64,000 nucleotides of DNA from Alphaproteobacteria bacterium. Lineage in GTDB: Bacteria > Pseudomonadota > Alphaproteobacteria > Rs-D84. The translations under genes and the position numbers were made by a program. The DNA lies in the NCBI GenBank assembly GCA_017962125.1, contig JAGCVZ010000002.1, positions 4,492 to 68,491 of the forward strand. The letters run 5' to 3'. Of this stretch, positions 11,471 through 28,021 are shown piece by piece (within the stretch, counting starts at the first letter, position 1; every line of letters starts with the position of its first letter). The notes beneath the pieces were generated by a model. It saw only the letters and a list, made by a program, of their open reading frames with translations. It was not told the origin of the DNA and ran no database searches.

Positions 11471-13699
11471 TTAATTGTTTTCCATTTGTGCGAGTTCGGC
11501 GCGTTTTTGTTTCAACAAGTCATTCGTTTCTTCTGTCTTTTGTTTTAACCGTTCTATCTCTTGTTCTAACCGTTCTATCTCTTGTTCTAGCAGTTTCCTG
11601 CCGGTGTCATAATCTTTTATTTTGTTATCTTTTGTGCTTTCAGGTGTGTTCGTGTTTTCCATTTCGCGATCTAACAGGTATACATTTGGCGGTGTTTCCA
11701 CAAATAACTTACCTGTTACCGCATCCTTTCTAGCAATACCACGTTCCATAACTTTTACTATTTTGTTTCCAACAATTTGTTTTTTGCAACCTTCAAGAAA
11801 ATGGGAATTAGCAAGTATTCGGCCATATGCTTGTGGATAAATATCAATTTCATACACATCGGGCGATGTCTCTGTTAGTTCAAACACGGTGTCTTCGTAT
11901 GGTGTTGATCTTACCCTACAGAGCCGCCCATTAAGTATACTGTCGGCATATAATTTCTTTTTATCTGTGTCGGTATATGTTGATTCTGGGGTTTGAAACG
12001 CTTCTTGTCTGTCATCGTTTGGGCTTTCTGTTACGTGGGAAAGCTTGGCATCGTCGTCTATGAAATCAGCATATAAAGTGTTATTTGTTGTTTGATTTTT
12101 GTCTGTGGTTGGTTGTGACGTATTGTATATTTTGGATTCCGCCATTTCGCGGGTCAATAGGTGAACATCAGGCGCCTTTTCAACAATCAGTTTGCCCATT
12201 CCGTTATCTTTTGCAATACCGCGTTTAAGAACTTTTACCACTGTTGCGCCGTTCAAAACGGTTGTCGTGCAACCGTCCAGAAAGGACGGATTGGCAAGGA
12301 TTCGTCTGTATGCCGGTTTGTAAATGTCAATTTCGTATGTGCCGGGCGATGTTTCGGTTAGTTCAAAATTAGTATATTCATCTGGTACCGGTTTGGGGCG
12401 ATATAGCTCTCCATCAATTATAGTAATGGAATATAATTTCTTTTTGGTTGTATTGTTAGCCACAGGTTCGGGATTTTGTTGTAATGTTTCCGTTTTTTCT
12501 TCGTCCAATAGATGGACTTTTAATTTTTTTTCTACGATAAATTTACCAAGGGGTGCATCCTCTCTTACCACACCAAATTCTTTGATTTTTACTATATTTC
12601 TGCCAATTACTTGTTTGTCTGTGCCTTGAAGAAAAGCCGCGGGATTACGAAGTATTCGTGGATATGCGGGTTCGTATAAACCAAGTTTATATTTGCCGTC
12701 GGGTTGTTTGGTTAGTGTAAGATTTGTGTCATCATTTGGCTTTTGTGTTACGTGGCTAAGTGTACCATCGTCTATGAAATCGGCATATAAAGTGTTATTT
12801 GTTGTTTGATTTTTGTCTGTGGTTGGTTGTGACGTATTGTATATTTTGGATTCCGCCATTTCGCGGTCAAGATGTATTATAGGTTTGTTTATTATACGAA
12901 GTTTACCATTTGATTCCATTACTGCCTTGCCAGGTTCTTGTATTTCAATGTGGTTTCCACTTCCTTGCCACATTGCACCATCAAGGAACTTTGATGGATT
13001 ACTAAGGATTCTTTGGTATGCTGGTTCATATGGAACGATTTTGTATGTTGTTCCGGATTCTTGTGTCAATACCCAGTTTGTATCACCATTTGGTTCATCT
13101 GTAGGGTTTTGTATTTCACCTTTATATGTTAAATTTGATGCATATATGACCAACGAATTTTTTTCATTTGTTTGTTTAGTTTGTATTGATTCTGAGTGCG
13201 AAAAACTTTTCTGAACTATTTGATTTAACGATTGTGCCAAAGAGTTGTCCATTTCATTAGCAAACAAAAACCTATACCGTGGAGACCATTGCCGCCAAGT
13301 ACCAAAATCACCATTTCCCACTATGTATGTAAATTCGGATAATATATTTGTATTGAACCATGATTTTAAGTCTTGTGCGAATTTTTGTTCGTCCAACAAT
13401 TTGATTCCTGGTTTTACAAAAATTGTTATGGCGGCATAGTTACTACCTGGGCGGGGGGAGCTTGCCTCGTATATTCCTGTATGGACTATTGTGTACGCAA
13501 CGGTACCGCTTGGTAATGTTTCTTTTATAAATTTTTCACCAGGTTTTGACGGGGTCTCCACATATTTTGGGTTGCCTATATGGAATCTGTCATAATAACC
13601 TTGAACTTCTGGGCGGTCGTCGCGTGTGGCGTTTGACTGTTGCCCAAGTGGACAACCATGAACTATCCATGCAAATGGTATCATTGGTTTTTCTGACAT
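11471..13699 (-). CDS. Hypothetical protein with four tandem ~95-aa domains and C-terminal coiled coil
   Basis: Motif Y.PAY.RIL.NP..FL.G occurs four times; EQEIERL repeated at the C-terminus. Confidence 0.85.
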   Translation of the reverse strand: MSEKPMIPFAWIVHGCPLGQQSNATRDDRPEVQGYYDRFHIGNPKYVETPSKPGEKFIKETLPSGTVAYTIVHTGIYEASSPRPGSNYAAITIFVKPGIKLLDEQKFAQDLKSWFNTNILSEFTYIVGNGDFGTWRQWSPRYRFLFANEMDNSLAQSLNQIVQKSFSHSESIQTKQTNEKNSLVIYASNLTYKGEIQNPTDEPNGDTNWVLTQESGTTYKIVPYEPAYQRILSNPSKFLDGAMWQGSGNHIEIQEPGKAVMESNGKLRIINKPIIHLDREMAESKIYNTSQPTTDKNQTTNNTLYADFIDDGTLSHVTQKPNDDTNLTLTKQPDGKYKLGLYEPAYPRILRNPAAFLQGTDKQVIGRNIVKIKEFGVVREDAPLGKFIVEKKLKVHLLDEEKTETLQQNPEPVANNTTKKKLYSITIIDGELYRPKPVPDEYTNFELTETSPGTYEIDIYKPAYRRILANPSFLDGCTTTVLNGATVVKVLKRGIAKDNGMGKLIVEKAPDVHLLTREMAESKIYNTSQPTTDKNQTTNNTLYADFIDDDAKLSHVTESPNDDRQEAFQTPESTYTDTDKKKLYADSILNGRLCRVRSTPYEDTVFELTETSPDVYEIDIYPQAYGRILANSHFLEGCKKQIVGNKIVKVMERGIARKDAVTGKLFVETPPNVYLLDREMENTNTPESTKDNKIKDYDTGRKLLEQEIERLEQEIERLKQKTEETNDLLKQKRAELAQMENN
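12054..12152. repeat. 99-bp intragenic direct repeat, copy 1
   Basis: Matches 12768-12866 with one mismatch. Confidence 0.9.
12768..12866. repeat. 99-bp intragenic direct repeat, copy 2
   Basis: Matches 12054-12152 with one mismatch. Confidence 0.9.
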
Positions 13700-13756
13700 T
13701 ACATTTTCCTTTGTTTTAATCGTTATTATTTTATCAGAAAATGTCTGAAATTAAAA

Positions 13757-14326
13757 TTAAATTCGTTCAGGTTTGTATATAATGTGTTTTTTGTTTACAT
13801 AGTCGCGCAGAACTTTTTCCCCAGATTTAGATTCAATGTTGCCATATACGGTGATGTTTCTGTGTTTGAATTCCTCTATCCAATTTGGTTTAAAACCTTC
13901 GTCAAAGCCAGTTATGTCTTCAACTATATTTGATGGAACGCCGAAATATATTTCTTTGATTCCGGACAACATGATGCCACCCAAACACATTATGCATGGT
14001 TCCGCCGTTACATATAAAGACAGATTGTGTGCTGATAAATCGTAAGTATGCAGTATTTCTTCGGCAGCGTGAATTGCATTCATTTCTGCGTGATTATGAC
14101 TGCATGTGTCTTTTACTACTGTGTTTGCAGTTTTGGCAATTAATTGCCCAGAAGAATCATAAATCGCGGCTAGGAAAGGTCCATAACCACGCGAAATGTA
14201 AGTTGGTAATTCGTTGTATAATTCAGTGATGATTTTTTTTGCATGGGTTAGTTTTGTATCATTGATTTTTTCATTTGTGATAATAGTATTCGAATTTTTG
14301 CGCATCTTGGTTGCTCCTGGTATCAT
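13757..14326 (-). CDS. Zinc-dependent nucleoside/guanine deaminase (CDA family)
   Basis: HAE and EPCIMC zinc motifs, GPF.AAI, GFDEG. Confidence 0.9.
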   Translation of the reverse strand: MIPGATKMRKNSNTIITNEKINDTKLTHAKKIITELYNELPTYISRGYGPFLAAIYDSSGQLIAKTANTVVKDTCSHNHAEMNAIHAAEEILHTYDLSAHNLSLYVTAEPCIMCLGGIMLSGIKEIYFGVPSNIVEDITGFDEGFKPNWIEEFKHRNITVYGNIESKSGEKVLRDYVNKKHIIYKPERI

Positions 14327-14473
14327 TTGTTTATATTATACAATTTGTTACAATAATAAACAAGTTGATTGTCGGATGATATGGCGCAACATGATGCAAG
14401 TCACGGGCTGATTTTAGAGATTGGACGAGAAATGGATAAATGCAAAAAATAAATTTAATTTGTCAAATTTAAA

Positions 14474-14767
14474 CTAATAGTGTTTTCTTTTACGCTTTTT
14501 GTGTTTTTGATAATATATAGTAAGCATCAAAACAAATATCAAAAAACAAATATCCAAAGACACAATAAATATCAGTCCTAATTCTGGTGTTTCCAGCAAT
14601 ATATACGCCATATAACATAAATCTGCGGCAATCCATGTGAACCAGTACCCTAAACTTAAATCGTCTGCAGATTTTGTTTTTAATAATTTAACAATTTGTG
14701 GCATATAAGCAACGAATTCTAGTACGGTGTAAACAGAAAGAAAAATTAAAGATATTGTCGTTTTCAT
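14474..14767 (-). CDS. PQ-loop / SemiSWEET-type small transporter (cassette cargo)
   Basis: YMPQIVKLLKTKSADDLS PQ-loop motif, three TM helices. Confidence 0.85.
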   Translation of the reverse strand: MKTTISLIFLSVYTVLEFVAYMPQIVKLLKTKSADDLSLGYWFTWIAADLCYMAYILLETPELGLIFIVSLDICFLIFVLMLTIYYQKHKKRKRKHY

Positions 14768-14831
14768 AATACAAATTATATCACAAAAACCACGAAAGTT
14801 GTAAAAAATTACTATTTTTTAAAACAAAAGA

Positions 14832-14855
14832 AAACTTGCCACGATTGGCAAGTTT
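14832..14855 (-). terminator. Junction hairpin AAACTTGCCA-CGAT-TGGCAAGTTT
   Basis: Perfect 10-bp stem with T-rich tail on the minus strand. Confidence 0.7.
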
Positions 14856-14861
14856 GGAAAC

Positions 14862-14887
14862 TGTGGTTGTGGGGTGCTGGCAAAACG
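14862..14887 (+). repeat. 26-bp inverted repeat, left of SSS transporter gene
   Basis: TGTGGTTGTGGGGTGCTGGCAAAACG, exact reverse complement of 16282-16307. Confidence 0.95.
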
Positions 14888-14903
14888 CGAGTTGAAATAG
14901 ATA

Positions 14904-14932
14904 TTGACCCCTAATACTGGTTTGTATAAAAT
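14904..14932 (+). promoter_or_regulatory. Sigma70-like promoter of SSS gene
   Basis: TTGACC-N17-TAAAAT followed by GAGGGG RBS. Confidence 0.55.
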
Positions 14933-14953
14933 TTACTCAAGAGGGGAATATAT

Positions 14954-16279
14954 ATGTTTGTGTTCTTTGTTTGTTATTTAATAATTTTGCTGGCTATTGC
15001 ATTATATGTATCAAGGAAACAGTCAATAAAAGGTTATTTATTAAATAATCGTAAAACATCAACATTTTTATTAACTTTGTCCAATGTTGCGACTTATATC
15101 GGTGCAGGTGCCACGGTTTTTGTGGTGTCTGAAATGGCACGCGGAAACTTTTTATCTTGTTTGGGGTTGGCGTTGGGAATTCCAATGTCTTTTGTCTTGT
15201 TTGGTCTTATTTCTGGAAAAATTAGAAAATGCGGAACGGATTTTAATGCGACAACAATATCTGATTTTTTCAACATAAAGTTTGGGCGACCAAATAGAAT
15301 ATTAATGTCAATTTTGCAACTGATTTATATTGCTTCTGTTATAGGAATTCAGGTTGTTGGTGTGTCATGGTTGGTTGCGCATATGTTAAATGTATCGTAT
15401 TTGTTAGCGGTTGTTTTAGTGTTTGGTGTATCAACTATTTATTCTGCTATTGGGGGATTAAAGGCGGACCTTATTACCGATGCAATACAATTTTTCATCA
15501 TAGCATTATTATTCGTTGGTTTGGGATTTTTTATACAGATATCGCCAAATTTTGGAACAGATATTATAGCGGCGTTCAGTGATATGTTTGTTTTATTTAA
15601 TAATAGCATGATTTTACCGTTTGTTCTTATATTTTTGGTTTTGTCTGTGCATTTAATTACGCAGCCAACGAATTGGCAACTTGCTTTATCAGCACAAGAT
15701 GAACATAGTATAAAAAAGTCTTGTTGGTGGTCTGCGGGGATTACTTTTGTTATTCAAATGATGGTTTTGTTCTTTGGGGTATATGCTTTTGGTACTATGG
15801 CGAATTTAAGTAATCACGACCTTGCGTTTTTTCAACTGATACAAAACACTATGCCAAAGTGGTTGGCTGGTTTAGGGTTTACAGGGTTATTGGCTATGTC
15901 AATGTCTACTTTAGATTCTGCATTTATCGCTGCATCTGCAATTATTACAGGTGAATTTAGAAATATAAAGAAAACAGGAACTGTCAGGTTGTTTACTTTA
16001 TTGTTTGGTTTGTTTGTATTCACTTTGGTTATGGTGTTTCCGTCGATAGCAACACTTGGATATTTTAGTGTTACTTGGGGGCTGATACCGTTGCCAGCAG
16101 TTTTGATTGGTATATACGGTAAAAAAACATCTGGTAAAACGATATTTTTATCTGTGTTGATACCTATGATTGTGACATTGATAGTTTATCCAATTATTGG
16201 ATTTTTGTCGGTATGTTTTATTCCGTTATTATCTGTGCTTATAATTTTTATAGGTAATAGATACATAAAACAGAAATAA
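14954..16279 (+). CDS. Sodium:solute symporter (SSS family) (cassette cargo)
   Basis: About 12-13 TM helices, ATYIGAG, GGLKADLITDAIQ, AMSMSTLDS. Confidence 0.88.
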   Translation: MFVFFVCYLIILLAIALYVSRKQSIKGYLLNNRKTSTFLLTLSNVATYIGAGATVFVVSEMARGNFLSCLGLALGIPMSFVLFGLISGKIRKCGTDFNATTISDFFNIKFGRPNRILMSILQLIYIASVIGIQVVGVSWLVAHMLNVSYLLAVVLVFGVSTIYSAIGGLKADLITDAIQFFIIALLFVGLGFFIQISPNFGTDIIAAFSDMFVLFNNSMILPFVLIFLVLSVHLITQPTNWQLALSAQDEHSIKKSCWWSAGITFVIQMMVLFFGVYAFGTMANLSNHDLAFFQLIQNTMPKWLAGLGFTGLLAMSMSTLDSAFIAASAIITGEFRNIKKTGTVRLFTLLFGLFVFTLVMVFPSIATLGYFSVTWGLIPLPAVLIGIYGKKTSGKTIFLSVLIPMIVTLIVYPIIGFLSVCFIPLLSVLIIFIGNRYIKQK

Positions 16280-16281
16280 TT

Positions 16282-16307
16282 CGTTTTGCCAGCACCCCAC
16301 AACCACA
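16282..16307 (-). repeat. 26-bp inverted repeat, right of SSS transporter gene
   Basis: CGTTTTGCCAGCACCCCACAACCACA, starting 3 bp after the stop codon. Confidence 0.95.
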
Positions 16308-16391
16308 TTGAACAGTAATGTTGAGCGGGGTAAGTTGTTATTGTAAATTCAAGCTTTTTACCAGTTCAAATGTTTTTGGCGATTTATTGAT

Positions 16392-16443
16392 AGTTCGAAA
16401 GTGTAGAAAATAACATATTTTTTCATAAATAAACTTTCGAACT
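16392..16443. repeat. att-like palindrome AGTTCGAAAGT-N30-ACTTTCGAACT
   Basis: Perfect 11-bp inverted arms; homologous to 16992, 17696 and 18788. Confidence 0.9.
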
Positions 16444-16468
16444 TACCAAAAACTTGTGTTCCAAACAA

Positions 16469-16490
16469 AAAATGCCCCGGCGGGCATTTT
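16469..16490 (-). terminator. Junction hairpin AAAATGCCC-CGGC-GGGCATTTT
   Basis: Perfect stem with T tract, 9 bp before the TGGTTG core. Confidence 0.75.
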
Positions 16491-16618
16491 GTTAACTGTG
16501 GTTGTGCTGTCTGTGCAATTCGCGAACCGAATTGTTAGAAATTGGACGAGAAATTGATGAGAAAAAAGATAAATTGAACCTATCAAATTTACATTAAAAA
16601 CATTATCAACGCGATTCT

Positions 16619-16948
16619 TTATCGTTTAGATTCTATCAACTCGTTTCGAACAACTCTTGTTTTATGCATCCTGTCTCTATGGTCAATCACGACTGTTGAA
16701 CCTTTTTCATAAAATTCTTGATATTTTTTTAATATGTTTTCAATATTACCATTTTCAATTAAATAGTGAACATCAGCGTCATACTTTATGTCGAGCGGGG
16801 AAGTAAAAAGACATACTTTTACATACCATTTCACCGCCGCAATTTCTTGATCAGTCAATGTGCGCCCCTGTCCCTTATTTTCTATACGCTTCAGCAATGA
16901 ATCTTCTACTTCTTTTGTGGCGTTTTGTAATTTTTTCTTAGCAACCAT
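16619..16948 (-). CDS. Hypothetical protein (cassette cargo)
   Basis: AAGGG RBS; 109-aa ORF between two junctions. Confidence 0.6.
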   Translation of the reverse strand: MVAKKKLQNATKEVEDSLLKRIENKGQGRTLTDQEIAAVKWYVKVCLFTSPLDIKYDADVHYLIENGNIENILKKYQEFYEKGSTVVIDHRDRMHKTRVVRNELIESKR

Positions 16949-16991
16949 AGTTTACCCTTTTTATTGTTTATGCGTACATTGTATCATAAAA

Positions 16992-17041
16992 AGTTCGAGA
17001 ATCAAAAAAATAGCACTTTTTCAAAACTAAACTTTCGAACT
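16992..17041. repeat. att-like palindrome (degenerate left arm)
   Basis: AGTTCGAGAAT-N28-ACTTTCGAACT. Confidence 0.8.
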
Positions 17042-17218
17042 CGGTGAAAGTATTTGAAACCAAACAAAATCCCGCCCTGAAACGAACGGTTGTTTATCTT
17101 GGTTATGCAGTGTGTGCAGTTCCCGAGCCGAATTATTAGAAATAGGGCAAGAGATTGATAGAGTGAAAGAAATCTCTAATCATAACAAATAAAAACGGAC
17201 AATTTGCCCGTTTTTACA

Positions 17219-17566
17219 TTATTTGTTTCTTGACATCAACTTTCTAGCCATATATCGTTTACCCCCCTCTTCACCAAATACAGTATATAACTTGTCTCTC
17301 AACTTTAACTCGCTTGACTTATATTTTTTAAACGCATCGGCCAATCTCTCATCATTAAATAAAGCATAACTTGGGCATTTTTTATTTCCGCATACATCAA
17401 ATTCCCCTTTATAGTATGGGCATACTATTTTGCCTATACCTAATATGCATAATGGTGCAAAATCAGGAGCAGAGTGGTAGTTTATTTTGGTTGTATGTTT
17501 TTTTGCCCACTGAAATTTTTTATACCGCCAATTTGTTTGTAACGTTAAACCGATAATAGTTCTCAT
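17219..17566 (-). CDS. Hypothetical Cys-containing protein (cassette cargo)
   Basis: AAGGAG RBS; 115 aa; hairpin terminator at about 17191-17216. Confidence 0.6.
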   Translation of the reverse strand: MRTIIGLTLQTNWRYKKFQWAKKHTTKINYHSAPDFAPLCILGIGKIVCPYYKGEFDVCGNKKCPSYALFNDERLADAFKKYKSSELKLRDKLYTVFGEEGGKRYMARKLMSRNK

Positions 17567-17694
17567 GTTTATACTCCTTATTGTTTACACTGTCACTTTA
17601 TTAACGATATATTATACTAATAATTATATCTGTCAACAAAAAATTTTAAAAACTATTTTTCCAATTTTTATGCAAGCATTAAAAATTTAATAAA

Positions 17695-17747
17695 GAGTTC
17701 GAAAGTTCAAAAAATTTGATATTTTCTGAGGACTAACTTTCGAACTC
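17695..17747. repeat. att-like palindrome
   Basis: GAGTTCGAAAGTT-N27-AACTTTCGAACTC, perfect 13-bp arms. Confidence 0.9.
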
Positions 17748-17804
17748 GGTGAAACACTTGCTTTTCTAACAAAAAACCGCCCTTATGGACGGTCTTGTAA
17801 ATCT

Positions 17805-17827
17805 TGGTTGTGGGATGCTGGCGATAC
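17805..17827 (+). repeat. 23-bp inverted repeat, left of methyltransferase gene
   Basis: TGGTTGTGGGATGCTGGCGATAC, exact reverse complement of 18679-18701. Confidence 0.95.
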
Positions 17828-17873
17828 GCGAGTTTTTGTGTTATAATAGTCAAAGATAAGAAAAAGGGATAAC

Positions 17874-18668
17874 ATGACAGTCAATAAACACAAAGATATT
17901 ATTATAAATAATTACACTGACTATGATGAAGATTCTCGTTTGGTTAAAGACCGTGCACATAACATGGAATATTTAACAACTATGCGTTATATTCAAAAGT
18001 TTTTGAAACCAGGGGCGAAGATACTTGAAATTGGTGCAGCAACAGGAAGGTATTCCGTCACTTTAGCAAAGATGGGTTATAATGTTACTGCTGTTGATTT
18101 GACTCCGAGATATGTTGAAATAATGAAGCGCAAATCACGCAGATTAAAAAACTTTCAATGCATGGTTGCTGATGCACTGGATTTAAGTATGTTTAAAGAT
18201 AATTCTTTTGATTTGGTTTTGAATTTTGGACCAATGTATCATTTGTTTAATCAAAAAGATAAAAATCAAGCAATCAAAGAAACTATTCGTGTAGCCAAGA
18301 AAAATGGTGTCTGTATGTTTGCATATATATCAAATGCATGTTTTATGACAGATTATGGTTTAAGACACGATAAGGTTGAATATTTGTGTTCTGTAATGGA
18401 TGATTTTGGAAAAATTCGTGATATTCCAGAAGAGATTTTTGCAACTTTTTATATAGAAAATTTCAAAAAACTTTTTATAAAAACAAAAACCAAATATATA
18501 ACGAATATAGCAACAGATGGAATTGCACCAGCTATGCGCGAATGGGTTAATCAATTGTCTAAAAAAGCGTTTGAAAAATTTTTACATTGGCATTTTATAA
18601 CATGTGAAAGGTTGGACCAACAAGGATATAGTAATCATCTGTTGTATATCTGCAAAAAATTAAAGTAA
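17874..18668 (+). CDS. Class I SAM-dependent methyltransferase (cassette cargo)
   Basis: ILEIGAATGRY, VTAVDL, ADALDLS, FGPMYHL. Confidence 0.92.
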   Translation: MTVNKHKDIIINNYTDYDEDSRLVKDRAHNMEYLTTMRYIQKFLKPGAKILEIGAATGRYSVTLAKMGYNVTAVDLTPRYVEIMKRKSRRLKNFQCMVADALDLSMFKDNSFDLVLNFGPMYHLFNQKDKNQAIKETIRVAKKNGVCMFAYISNACFMTDYGLRHDKVEYLCSVMDDFGKIRDIPEEIFATFYIENFKKLFIKTKTKYITNIATDGIAPAMREWVNQLSKKAFEKFLHWHFITCERLDQQGYSNHLLYICKKLK

Positions 18669-18678
18669 AATTTAAGTT

Positions 18679-18701
18679 GTATCGCCAGCATCCCACAACC
18701 A
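18679..18701 (-). repeat. 23-bp inverted repeat, right of methyltransferase gene
   Basis: GTATCGCCAGCATCCCACAACCA. Confidence 0.95.
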
Positions 18702-18787
18702 TAGTTAACAAAAGGACCGGTTAGAGCAGCTTTTCATTAGTTTTATAGGATTGTTGCTTGTTCGAATGTTTTTATAGTGTTATAAGC

Positions 18788-18839
18788 GGTTCGAAAGTGT
18801 TGATAGAGAGATAATTTTTCTAAAAATTACTTTTGAACT
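18788..18839. repeat. att-like palindrome
   Basis: GGTTCGAAAGT-N30-ACTTTTGAACT; flanking sequence similar to the 16392 copy. Confidence 0.85.
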
Positions 18840-18892
18840 TACCAAAGTCTTATGTTTTTGCTTTCTGGAATGCGCACGAGACCTTGATAAAA

Positions 18893-19138
18893 TTATTTCC
18901 AAAAATGTCTTTTTGCGAATGCGTATCCGGAACCTGTTTTAAGGTATTGTTCAAATTCCAATGCGGCGTCTTTGGAACTAAATGCAAAATAATTTACTAA
19001 TTCCCAAGGTTTATATTTTGCTGTATGTATTGAATATCCTGCATTATGTTGCTTTAATCGTCGTTTCAAATCATCAGTTTGCCCGATGTATTTTTGTTCT
19101 GGATGGGAAATACTTTTTATAAGATAGACGTAAAACAT
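18893..19138 (-). CDS. Small GIY-YIG nuclease family protein
   Basis: MFYVYLI...YIGQT.DLKRRL.QHN...FEQYLKTGSG; probable start at ATG 19138. Confidence 0.9.
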   Translation of the reverse strand: MFYVYLIKSISHPEQKYIGQTDDLKRRLKQHNAGYSIHTAKYKPWELVNYFAFSSKDAALEFEQYLKTGSGYAFAKRHFWK

Positions 19139-19217
19139 TTGATTCCTATTCCAGCCACACTCCGTTAAAACTATGTGTGGCGCTACTTCGCGATAACTGC
19201 TCCGTCCGTGTGGCCTG

Positions 19218-19248
19218 CCACACGAAGCGTCGCAGACGCGAAGTGTGG
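19218..19248. repeat. REP-like hairpin with GAA/GAA internal loop abutting the tRNA 3' end
   Basis: CCACAC-GAA-GCGTC-GCA-GACGC-GAA-GTGTGG. Confidence 0.65.
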
Positions 19249-19319
19249 TTGGGGCGCACGGATTCGAACCATGATAAAGAGAACCAAAATCTCTTGTCCT
19301 ACCATTAGACGACACCCCA
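19246..19319 (-). tRNA. tRNA-Gln (anticodon TTG)
   Basis: Cloverleaf: acceptor TGGGGTG/CGCCCCA, anticodon arm AGAGA-TTTTGGT-TCTCT, T-arm GGTTCGAATCC, encoded CCA. Confidence 0.96.
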
Positions 19320-19446
19320 AAAGCGGTTTTGATTATAGTCGTTTTTCGACGTTTTGCAATAATAAAATATTTTTCTTGTTTTGGACTTGATTTTTAATTA
19401 TTAAAAATTATAATGATTGTTGGTTTTAATAAAGCAGGGGGTGAAT

Positions 19447-19896
19447 ATGGCGCATAAAGAATTAGTGTCTTTGATGTGGAAAAATATATTGGCGTTTGCG
19501 AAATTGTCGGAACGTATAAATCGCAGTCAAATGTCTTTTAGTGATTATTCGCGAACACAGATGCAGTTGCTGATACGTCTGTATCTGGGGGGGCGGGTGC
19601 GCTTGAAAGATTTGGCGGCACGCGAATTTGTGCCGGCACCGAATTTATGCACGGCTTTCCGTAAGATGGAACATGATGGTTTAGTGGTGCGCGCAGTAGA
19701 TGAAAATGATCGTCGGAATACGTGGTATTCGGTCAGCGAACATGGGGTTCAGGTGGCAAATGGAATTATTGAAATGTTACACGATGCGATTGGTGCTATG
19801 TTCAAAGATATTGATAAAAAAGACGAAGAAGAATTGGTTAGGTCATTCAAATCTATGAATGAAATTCTGTCAAAAATGGAGAATAAAAATGCGTAG
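19447..19896 (+). CDS. MarR-family transcriptional regulator
   Basis: wHTH with GLVVRAVDENDRR; first gene of the efflux operon. Confidence 0.88.
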   Translation: MAHKELVSLMWKNILAFAKLSERINRSQMSFSDYSRTQMQLLIRLYLGGRVRLKDLAAREFVPAPNLCTAFRKMEHDGLVVRAVDENDRRNTWYSVSEHGVQVANGIIEMLHDAIGAMFKDIDKKDEEELVRSFKSMNEILSKMENKNA

Positions 19897-21208
19897 ATTT
19901 TTTATGTGTGTTTTCTCGCTATACGCCGGATTTTCCTGTATAGACAGTTTTGCAATGGATTTGTCATTGAATGAAGCAGTGCAAAAAATTGTCGCAGAAT
20001 CACATGATTTGAAAAAGGCAGATGCAAATGTTAAAAAGGCGCAAGCATCATTGGATGTCGCAAACGCAAGTCGGTGGTTTAATGTTGAAGGTTCTGTATC
20101 TTATATGAGCCTTATTAATGTCGAAAAACCGTTTGATTCATATAATGTGCAATTGCCACCTGAAATCGGTGGTTTAGTACCTCAACTGGCTGGGTTTGAA
20201 AGTATAGATGTTCCAGATAATATCTTTATTGCTGGGGTTACTGTGACGCAACCGATTTATACTTTTGGTAAAATTGGTAATGCGGTTGATAGCATGCGTA
20301 GCGCAATAAAGATGAGCGAATATAGCAAAGAAATGGTCTTGCGCGAGGTGCGATACAGTGCGGCAGATTTGTATTGGACCGCTAAGATGACAGATGAAAT
20401 TGTGAAAATTGCAAAAAAAAATCTAAATGATGCAGTATCTGCAAAAAAACAACTAACAGGCGCAGGGCGTGCGAATCGTGGCAATTTGGTAAAGATAGAA
20501 TCGGATATTGCAACCAAAAAAATTAATCTGTCAGATGCAGAATTTAATTGTGATACGGCGCATAGGATGTTAAAAATTTTGGCGGGAATTGATGTTGATG
20601 AACCATTAATTTTAACCGATGAATTCCCAGAATCTTTTCCAGAAATGGAAGATAAAAAATTGTCCAATACTCCAGAATGGCAGGTGTTAGACCAACAGAT
20701 AAAGATGTATGAGGCCAAGGCTTCATCTAATCGGGCGAATGGGTATCCAACACTTGCGGCGGTTGGGGCATATGACTATGTGACGATGGACAAAGATTTA
20801 AAAAATATGTTTAATAGTAATGGAGTGCAATCTGCGTATTTAGGTCTTGCGCTTAAGGTTCCGATTTTTAGTGGTGGTGTAAACAAGGCTAATGCAACGC
20901 TTGATGTAATGAGTGCCGAAGTTGTCCGCCAAGATTTGGATAAGTCGAAAAAGATTACATCCGAAAAATATACTAATGCGATAAAGCAATATAATCATTT
21001 GCGTGATAATCTTGGTGGACTTAGTAATGCTCGTAATTTGGCGGCCAAGGCGTACGGTTTTTCGCTTGATAGGTTTGCGGCGGGTCAAACTTCTGCGGTG
21101 GAATTGGCCGATGTTTCAAATGGCTTATATCAATTAGACATGGCTTTGTTAAATGCAAAGTATAAGATTTTAATGTCGGCAGAATCAATTAAAAAACTTG
21201 GTGAATAA
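19889..21208 (+). CDS. TolC-family outer membrane efflux protein
   Basis: Signal peptide, LSLNEAV, QPIYTFG, YPTL, VPIFSGG, RFAAG. Confidence 0.9.
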   Translation: MRRFFMCVFSLYAGFSCIDSFAMDLSLNEAVQKIVAESHDLKKADANVKKAQASLDVANASRWFNVEGSVSYMSLINVEKPFDSYNVQLPPEIGGLVPQLAGFESIDVPDNIFIAGVTVTQPIYTFGKIGNAVDSMRSAIKMSEYSKEMVLREVRYSAADLYWTAKMTDEIVKIAKKNLNDAVSAKKQLTGAGRANRGNLVKIESDIATKKINLSDAEFNCDTAHRMLKILAGIDVDEPLILTDEFPESFPEMEDKKLSNTPEWQVLDQQIKMYEAKASSNRANGYPTLAAVGAYDYVTMDKDLKNMFNSNGVQSAYLGLALKVPIFSGGVNKANATLDVMSAEVVRQDLDKSKKITSEKYTNAIKQYNHLRDNLGGLSNARNLAAKAYGFSLDRFAAGQTSAVELADVSNGLYQLDMALLNAKYKILMSAESIKKLGE

Positions 21209-25957: not shown

Positions 25958-26091
25958 CCCCGCCCTTGCGGCGGGGTCGCAGAGTGCGAAGCACGATGCG
26001 GGGGTGGGTAAAAACACATAAAAACATAAACCCGCCCCCGACTCGACTATCACTATCGTTCTGTCTTGTCGACCCCGCCGCAAGGGCGGGG
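25958..26091. repeat. REPIN-like element: two inverted 22-bp GC-rich palindromic units
   Basis: CCCCGCCCTTGCGGCGGGGTCG (25958-25979) and exact reverse complement (26070-26091). Confidence 0.85.
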
Positions 26092-26130: not shown

Positions 26131-26188
26131 CCACCTCGTCGCCGTTCGGCGCCACTCCTCCGGAGGAGGAGAACTTTTCTTTCTGGAA
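26131..26188. repeat. 58-bp REP-like direct repeat, copy 1
   Basis: 54/58 identical to 27875-27932 by manual alignment. Confidence 0.9.
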
Positions 26189-26229
26189 ATTTTTTATTTT
26201 GAATAAAGTCAAATATGTGATAAAATGTG

Positions 26230-27874: not shown

Positions 27875-27932
27875 CCACCTCGTCGCCGTTCGGCGCCACT
27901 CCTCCGGGGGAAGAGAACTTTTATCTCTGGAA
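27875..27932. repeat. 58-bp REP-like direct repeat, copy 2
   Basis: See 26131-26188. Confidence 0.9.
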
Positions 27933-28021
27933 TAATTTTGTAATTATAAAAATATAAAAAAACACTAACCCCTGCCTCGCCGTAGCCTTGGCGTAGGCGG
28001 GACTCACACTAACACTAATCA

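Follow-up and report, generated by a model that had tools for sequence, protein, structure and literature searches.

Does a gene that is enclosed by a perfect inverted repeat flip? The question is raised by a 64,000-nt stretch of contig JAGCVZ010000002.1 (assembly GCA_017962125.1, an alphaproteobacterium of the Rs-D84 lineage), here called the window, in which a sodium:solute symporter (SSS) family gene lies between two 26-bp repeat copies. An original prediction, made from the sequence letters, had taken the enclosed segment to be either invertible or a separately captured mini-module. We find a tandem array of single-gene cassettes behind a tRNA-Gln(ttg) gene, with the SSS gene as the cargo of one of them. 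Our preferred explanation, which we consider probable, is that the SSS cassette is a recombinase-less module of fixed orientation, and that a large serine recombinase (LSR) acting in trans docks its circle at tRNA-Gln through one full-length arm, without flipping.

A perfect repeat around an array cassette

The two repeat copies, at 14862–14887 (+ strand) and 16282–16307 (− strand), are exact reverse complements as first described, with 0 further matching bases inward or outward. They are the longest of 13 perfect inverted repeats found in the 0.94-Mb genome (935,647 bases in 16 contigs, 94% complete; scanned for arms separated by more than 30 nt and by no more than 6 kb), against a chance expectation for such pairs of about 1e-7 per 64 kb. 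The enclosure is as tight as had been noted, with 2 bases between the SSS stop (16279) and the right copy (16282). The tRNA-like core ascribed to the repeat is also real: TGGTTG, at 14864–14869 and on the minus strand at 16300–16305, is the reverse complement of the final 6 nt of tRNA-Gln(ttg) (19246–19251). The left 26-mer is made up of two chance-shared bases, the core and arm positions +1 to +18. The left arm then runs on into a conserved 7-nt tail (14887–14893), whereas the right copy keeps the arm only to +17 (16283–16299) and has no tail, so the two ends are not equivalent.

The enclosed gene (14954–16279, + strand) encodes 441 aa and matches the Pfam SSF family (E 6e-18); the NCBIfam sss, panF and putP models all score below cut-off. 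The best sigma-70-like site (TTGACC, 17 nt, TAAAAT; 10/12; 14904–14932, + strand) does lie inside the repeats, where a promoter had been predicted, but a scan returned 8 such sites against 11.4 in shuffles, so this one counts as a consensus match only.

The gene itself is rare, being found in 1 of 257 genomes of the genus, and its relatives do not carry the repeat. A homologue with 76% identity (locus L184) sits in an ordinary single-arm tRNA-Glu-type cassette without an inverted repeat, and homologues at 42–60% in other alphaproteobacterial metagenome-assembled genomes have no array sites. The check proposed at the outset, of whether homologous SSS genes are flanked by the repeat, was carried through 159 loci: true array sites occur in L184 only, and the few other motif matches are isolated and were taken as chance. 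Since the homologues lack it, the inverted repeat belongs to the module and not to the gene. Many of the SSS homologues (L184–L342), at 30–36% identity, are from Patescibacteria and DPANN archaea, and several adjoin tRNA genes (L264 and L302 among them).

The array is anchored by tRNA-Gln(ttg) (19246–19319, − strand), whose final 6 nt supply the core, and the core is present at every array junction. A profile of the intergenic unit has about 40 matches in the genome, in clustered rows, several of them behind tRNA-Gln, tRNA-Met and tRNA-Glu genes. Read on the + strand of the window, a unit begins with an inverted pair of 11-nt boxes spaced by about 30 nt; a stretch of about 56 nt that closes with a terminator-like hairpin leads to the core, and the arm comes last. 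The SSS cassette begins with a putative full-length attP'-like arm (14870–14893, + strand; positions +1 to +24, where conservation stops in 52 distinct forward arms), whose tail GCGAGTT is a predicted zinc-ribbon-domain (ZD) motif. To the right of the gene, the inverted core is followed by an inverted P-like spacer (16306–16373, − strand) with TTCAA beside the core and a single box (16364–16370) 58 nt from it. Next come a palindromic pair of 11-nt boxes about 30 nt apart (16392–16443), of the motif seen in the 3' ends of tRNA-targeting LSR genes, and a terminator-like hairpin with the forward core 16499–16504 (16469–16504, + strand), which ends the SSS cassette and starts the next. A sister module of the same design lies nearer the tRNA gene (17805–18701, + strand), where a SAM methyltransferase gene (17874–18668) is held in a second perfect inverted pair, of 23 bp (17805–17827 and 18679–18701).

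Unequal arms in modules of the genus

The arm pattern (core plus 17 nt, which would miss inverted arms of less than 17 nt) occurs in 59 of the 257 genus genomes, with 0 hits for a reversed-pattern control. We assembled 65 loci (53 newly fetched regions, 11 earlier loci and the array of the window), 53 of them orientable by tRNA-Gln. The 12 loci without a called tRNA-Gln, with 5 modules, stand outside the polarity count; by their box pairs these read full-left after reversal, which is not an independent orientation. In the oriented loci we counted 53 forward and 53 inverted B-type arms, and all 53 inverted arms are short. Forward arms (52 distinct) are conserved to +24, through the tail GCGAGTT, and inverted arms lose conservation past +17. 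At least 4 of the 5 bases of GCGAG are present in 48 of 52 distinct forward arms, compared with at most 2 in 51 of 52 distinct inverted arms. The tail lies outside the search pattern, so this contrast is not built into the collection. The idea that the tail is an empty hairpin (a GCGA loop with a duplicated GTT) was set aside because its last two bases vary.

Outside the inverted core, a TTCAA motif is accompanied by one box at 58–59 nt in 44 of 52 distinct sites; in 7 cases the left member of the box pair serves as this box, and the layout core–box pair–core is then symmetric. The genus holds 48 modules of this design, in 31 cargo clusters, and the 31 different cargos join the inverted arm at about +17. 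Counted from the core end, CGA lies at +14 to +16 in the tRNA and at +19 to +21 in both arm types. By inference, the full arm is a half-site of the P type whose ZD motif is missing from the short arm. The module ends are likely to be facing copies of an LSR attachment arm, the left complete and the right cut at +17. An earlier remark that cargo with repeats lies on the + strand and cargo without them on the − strand describes the window well enough but is no general rule, as the longest open reading frame (ORF) points the opposite way in 11 of the 48 modules, and repeat-less cassettes with + cargo exist both in the C7 array of the same genome and in L184.

Loci with an inverted arm lie at tRNA-Gln arrays in 44 cases. 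Two inverted arms occur in seven of the 44 arrays and three in one, so that direct repeats of the mirror site are available for exchange. In L134 and L135 the first 10 nt of the full arms equal the tRNA-Gln(ttg) end, suggesting conversion from the tRNA. The right-hand adaptor can hold cargo too: in L052 (8356–9456) and L055 (12698–13798) a Fic-family gene lies between the inverted-site box and the box pair.

The cassette ends resemble LSR islands

The box pair links the cassettes to autonomous islands. PF07508 matches 66 of 121 genus genomes, and a 511-aa LSR of genome G004 has relatives at E <1e-40 in 70 of 257. In all 21 LSR loci examined, the box pair falls within the last LSR codons (SSK...LSN), and the LSR genes, with the domain set Resolvase, Recombinase and Zn ribbon, run into a tRNA 3' end at a TGG codon (21 loci, one without a called tRNA). 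The organism itself retains an in-frame fossil of an LSR C terminus that runs into tRNA-Gln(ctg) (contig C11:7720–7930), with the same 81-nt box-to-core spacing as intact genes, where the distance of about 81 nt was counted by eye; the fossil fits the decay of a larger element. Together, the box pair in LSR gene ends and this fossil indicate that the cassette ends derive from LSR islands: the right end would descend from the end of an LSR gene, and the left arm would be the other half of the island's attachment site. The module carries no integrase (12 neighbouring ORFs), and its ends are homologous to an autonomous LSR island.

The box-pair pattern occurs in 63 of 121 other genomes of the same family, compared with 0 of 29 genomes drawn from five other families of the order. 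Among 50,697 phage records the adaptor finds no real match (one phage gives two 35-nt matches), and one inverted-site pattern gave 0 matches in viral contigs.

Six tRNA-Gln LSR islands (L050 and L343–L347) have an ORF of 169–171 aa with a weak REP_ORF2-G2P match below cut-off, possibly a replication or transfer gene. Two tandem LSR genes about 1.5 kb apart are found in G061:C4, G108:C7 and G021:C68, adjoining tRNA-His in two of them.

The module spreads as a unit

The second option of the original prediction, a separately captured mini-module, is borne out by copies of the same module in unrelated surroundings. The sequencing runs that contain the genome are animal gut metagenomes. In assembly X7, one contig covers exactly 14864–16312 with 12 differences in 1,449 nt (99%) and unrelated letters on both sides; X12 comes from a different study and agrees with X7 in ends and variants. 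In both, the mobile copy starts at 14864, inside the repeat. To the right of the module, X7 carries sequence that matches the beginning of the flank next to another cargo, in L131. X6 is a strain that shares the left context of the window. It has a further unit of about 526 nt, which begins with the same arm, immediately to the left of the SSS module, and 11 nt are deleted from its SSS left arm. Twelve module pairs that are at least 97.5% identical join modules of different species; as they form 8 groups, they are not independent. Nearly all of them differ in the left flank, and in 7 the right flank departs 0–9 nt from the inverted core; L123 and L146 (99.85% identical) are a further case of flank change. 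Gain, loss and spread as a unit are thus seen in X6, X7 and X12 and in near-identical modules of different species.

The arms of a module co-vary. Eight of 48 arm pairs are identical over 23 nt, against 2.7 expected by shuffling (p 0.002), and with one module per cargo cluster the mean number of arm mismatches is 2.37, against 3.36 when shuffled (p <=0.002). The signal comes from +1, +4, +8 and +9, and none from +6, +13, +15 and +17. The methyltransferase modules of the window and of G148 are 80% identical inside, yet each has perfect arms, with the same 3 changes in both arms. In near-identical pairs the arms change about 6 times faster than the cargo (34/552 sites against 1%). We read this as frequent rewriting of the arms through recombination with the many similar sites, joined now and then by conversion from one arm of a module to the other. 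Homogenisation, suggested earlier as a source of the perfect identity, therefore holds as a pattern, its mechanism remaining a matter of interpretation. As to the companion suggestion, that identity signals recent activity, identical arms are the minority state, so identity alone says little about age.

These observations also bear on whether the short inverted arm is a scar alone, left by a gene-loading reaction between two arm copies and without any later role. Formation of this kind would account well for the 31 different cargo clusters that all meet the inverted arm at about +17, and for the rare arm variants common to both module ends, which copying at formation would give; the SSS homologue in L184 and a cargo beginning MKSWEKAL also occur in cassettes without a repeat. 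What a scar without a later role does not explain is that modules with 97.8–99.85% identity have acquired new flanks at the inverted core since capture, that the box stays 58–59 nt from the core in 44 of 52 sites, and that methyltransferase modules that are only 80% identical keep perfect arms of different sequence. Of the alternatives to the preferred explanation this survives best, and we still regard it as improbable.

A second alternative looks to single-stranded DNA. Integron attC sites and the attP of CTX phage act as folded single-strand hairpin sites. On a single-stranded circle or transcript, the short arm could likewise reach over the box pair to the full arm, some 200 nt distant, and form a hairpin attachment or transfer signal with it. 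The segment 16270–16540 does fold into one long imperfect hairpin that pairs both cores (z −5.0), the inverted site mirrors the forward spacing, and some LSR islands match a Rep domain of the rolling-circle type, though weakly (PF23343, below cut-off at E about 2e-4). The low folding energy, however, follows from the repeats themselves. The match is limited to core and arm, and the bases just outside the cores differ (TTAAC or TTGAA on the forward side, TTCAA on the inverted side). Most cassettes in the genome have no inverted arm, and the forward side is often broken by insertions, with no box within 75 nt at 37 of 52 tRNA junctions. This makes a fold-back signal quite unlikely.

Modules keep one orientation

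Were the segment phase-variable, a recombinase would flip promoter and gene between the repeats and give mixed populations. The perfect 26-bp repeats invite this idea, the genome has an LSR and a small serine recombinase, and repeated inversion with conversion could produce the co-variation of the arms. The distribution of polarity speaks against it. Of 48 modules, 43 can be oriented by the tRNA gene: 40 are full-left/short-right, 3 have a decayed left tail and 0 are reversed. In the 24 pairs of modules with shared cargo, both members always point the same way. A relaxed search recovered 70 forward full arms and a single inverted match, of unrelated sequence and taken as chance. Kin are not independent, but a two-state switch would hardly leave 31 cargo clusters with a single polarity.

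Metagenome assemblies give the same picture. In X1 and X2, either of which may be the source sample, one contig runs across both repeats; in X3 and X4 each repeat is bridged in its native arrangement. Across 8 assemblies, X6, X7 and X12 among them, no strand-changing joint was found; 7 of the 8 cover the module (X15 does not, and gives no orientation evidence). Array-skipping joints with short sides (20–47 nt), which other arrays could produce, were left out. The evidence consists of contigs, from which rare variants drop out, so transient flips are compatible with it. No invertase gene is present among 12 ORFs neighbouring the segment; the serine recombinases of the genome are on contigs C1 and C6, and the small one, on C6, was rejected as an invertase because it is far from any array and has no arm sites. 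A 366-aa gene beside the inverted core in L052 and L055, also considered as an invertase, encodes the Fic protein. We found no inverted cassette insertion at a mirror site. As the original prediction had recognised, the promoter-like site lies inside the repeats and the segment is not a promoter on/off switch; promoter and gene would turn together and expression would hardly change. The invertible segment that it proposed finds no support in these data, and we judge phase variation very unlikely.

A DDE-type non-autonomous transposon (a MITE or composite) with 26-bp terminal repeats, suggested by repeats that start with TGT, end with ACA and tightly enclose one gene, is largely refuted, since other modules do not conserve the two outer bases and the mobile copy lacks them, there is no target-site duplication and the flanks differ, the genome has only 4 arm copies, all in the SSS array, 44 inverted-arm loci lie at tRNA-Gln arrays, and the ends match those of LSR islands.

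A module probably docked in trans

We return to the preferred explanation, a fixed-orientation module docked by an LSR encoded elsewhere. The cassette, from 14864 to 16504, would move as a circle whose attP comprises the box pair, the terminator, the core and the full left arm, and this attP would recombine with the tRNA 3' end. The right copy would keep the part read by the recombinase domain and linker (+1 to +17) and lack the predicted zinc-ribbon motif (+16 to +24); without that motif it could not act as attP', which would lock the orientation. The full-left/short-right arrangement would then resemble an attR/attL product pair, which integrases would leave alone, and the flipped state would resemble attB/attP and be turned back. 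The mirror half-site is nevertheless likely to be an exchange point between modules, at which LSR or short-homology recombination may swap the right-hand adaptor and replace the cargo. Occasional conversion between the arms of one module would then account for the perfect match seen around the SSS gene.

Several observations weigh against this account. In the genome, which is 94% complete, the tRNA-Gln clade of LSRs is missing. The sole LSR present sits at tRNA-Glu and is 39% identical to the tRNA-Gln enzyme, so the helper of the array is either that tRNA-Gln enzyme, unassembled, or absent. We observed no recombination event, and the position of the crossover is an assumption; the 5-bp offset between the CGA motifs fits only if it lies at the end of TGGTTG. 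No circular form was seen, although contigs would hide circles. The left half-sites have no mirror zinc-ribbon motif within 24 bp and are not canonical att sites; they show only TT-N-AA near the core, with boxes 56–58 nt off in cassettes and about 81 nt off in LSR genes. Describing the short arm as attB-like is a guess, because it has no tRNA-type motif in the right register. Five of the 12 near-identical pairs keep their right flank, and shared sequence often extends 7–9 nt past the inverted core, which homologous exchange fits as well as a cut at the core. Within single arrays, arm mismatches number 2.5 within modules and 3.2 across them, a small gap from 13 modules.

We also entertain, tentatively, a more specific role for the mirrored short arm as a dedicated loading site. 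Genes would be captured or replaced between facing arms and then latched in place, since only one of the arms would have the zinc-ribbon motif.

Relation to known systems

The closest published kind is the ssrA islands of Dehalococcoides, which likewise lie in tandem behind the end of a tRNA-like gene, with an LSR gene overlapping attL and with integrase-less members (PMC3146451). There, the DsiB LSR of about 540 aa overlaps attL at its 3' end and has its stop set by the neighbouring sequence, and many islands without an integration module are proposed to be cis-mobilisable (PMC3146451). Those islands use tmRNA as target, a 20-bp direct repeat and insertion in the T-loop (PMC3146451), whereas the sequence shared here is no more than a 6-nt core at the CCA end and the units are about 0.5–2 kb, unlike the ssrA islands. 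The word 'inverted' has 0 matches in the main text of that paper.

Accretion of CIMEs and of IMEs with ICEs similarly involves loss of integration genes, retention of attL and attR and tandem pile-up at the end of a target gene (PMC5704250). CIMEs, however, are decayed larger elements, and 3'-end targeting goes with tyrosine integrases (PMC5704250); our modules are stereotyped, carry one or two genes and a mirrored internal half-site, and pass between species at 99% identity. In the LI integrase, of the A118/LI type, the ZD reads positions 16–24 of attP and 11–19 of attB (PMC3783163). The full arm resembles this, for right halves only, in ending at +24 and in having its CGA 5 bp further out than that of the tRNA (PMC3783163), and differs in the missing left mirror ZD motif, the distant box pair and the third, inverted 17-nt arm. 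Tycheposons of Prochlorococcus are also tRNA-anchored cargo elements that build islands by repeated insertion, but 910 of 937 use tyrosine recombinases, their sites are partial tRNAs of about 40 nt and they have their own integrase, unlike the modules here (bioRxiv 10.1101/2020.12.28.424599).

Invertons of the PhaseFinder type share the short inverted repeats around a segment but are defined by the occurrence of both orientations; the modules have one orientation, unequal ends and no neighbouring invertase. Integron cassettes form rows of single-gene, site-bounded, exchangeable units, and to our knowledge the origin of new ones is still open. In contrast to integrons, the sites here come from a serine-recombinase island and a tRNA end and not from attC (the array junctions, judged by eye and without an attC model, are tRNA-core sites), the SSS gene has its own promoter-like site, and growth occurs at the tRNA. 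No IntI with attI lies beside the array; two tyrosine recombinases, of unassigned type, are encoded elsewhere in the genome. The array works like an integron but is not one, and with a single orientation it is not an inverton either. In titles and abstract openings, with supplements and most subscription papers outside the scope, we found no description of mirrored truncated att arms or of such arrays in these bacteria.

Other features of the locus

At the outer end of the array lies a decayed cassette (14380–14831, − strand) with a PQ-loop (SemiSWEET-like) gene at 14474–14767. The terminator-like hairpin that closes it (14832–14855, − strand) forms the left flank of the SSS module and occupies the same pre-core place as in other array units. 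Between the SSS and methyltransferase modules are two ordinary single-arm cassettes (16505–17804, − strand) whose ORFs, of 109 aa (16619–16948) and 115 aa (17219–17566), have no Pfam match. Beside the tRNA end are a GIY-YIG nuclease gene (18893–19138) and a hairpin-rich element (together 18893–19245, − strand). Over 13500–20000, nothing but the tRNA passes Rfam.

The GIY-YIG gene and hairpin-rich element stand likewise at the tRNA end in L051, L052 and many other tRNA-Gln loci. Short palindromic relatives of the element lie directly outside forward and inverted cores in L103, L110, L125, L129, L135 and L143, and in L143 such a relative joins the inverted core straight to the forward core. Elsewhere in the window, a 742-aa ORF without a Pfam match (11471–13699, − strand) has internal repeats, including a 99-nt near-exact pair at 12054 and 12768, and a REP-like set consists of a 22-bp perfect inverted pair and a pair of 65-nt G+C-rich direct repeats (25958–26091, 26131–26195 and 27875–27939). 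Just upstream of tRNA-Arg(ccg) in the same genome, an unrelated perfect 22-bp inverted repeat encloses two genes, of 362 and 300 aa (C14:21938–24314).

Significance

The type of island has published precedent and the cargo is ordinary. What is added here is direct evidence of mobility, the polarity count and the model of full and short arms. For screens that look for invertons, the locus is a caution that a perfect repeat around a gene need not flip. The unequal mirror ends provide a natural test of the directionality rules of serine integrases and might reveal a cargo-loading step. Should the loading-site idea be true, the system would be a serine-integrase analogue of the integron, a natural form of recombinase-mediated cassette exchange, in which the origin of cassettes could be tested with one enzyme and three short sites. 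For the organism, the array shows how a gut bacterium with a 0.9-Mb genome swaps single genes through tRNA-docked modules that cross species at 99% identity.

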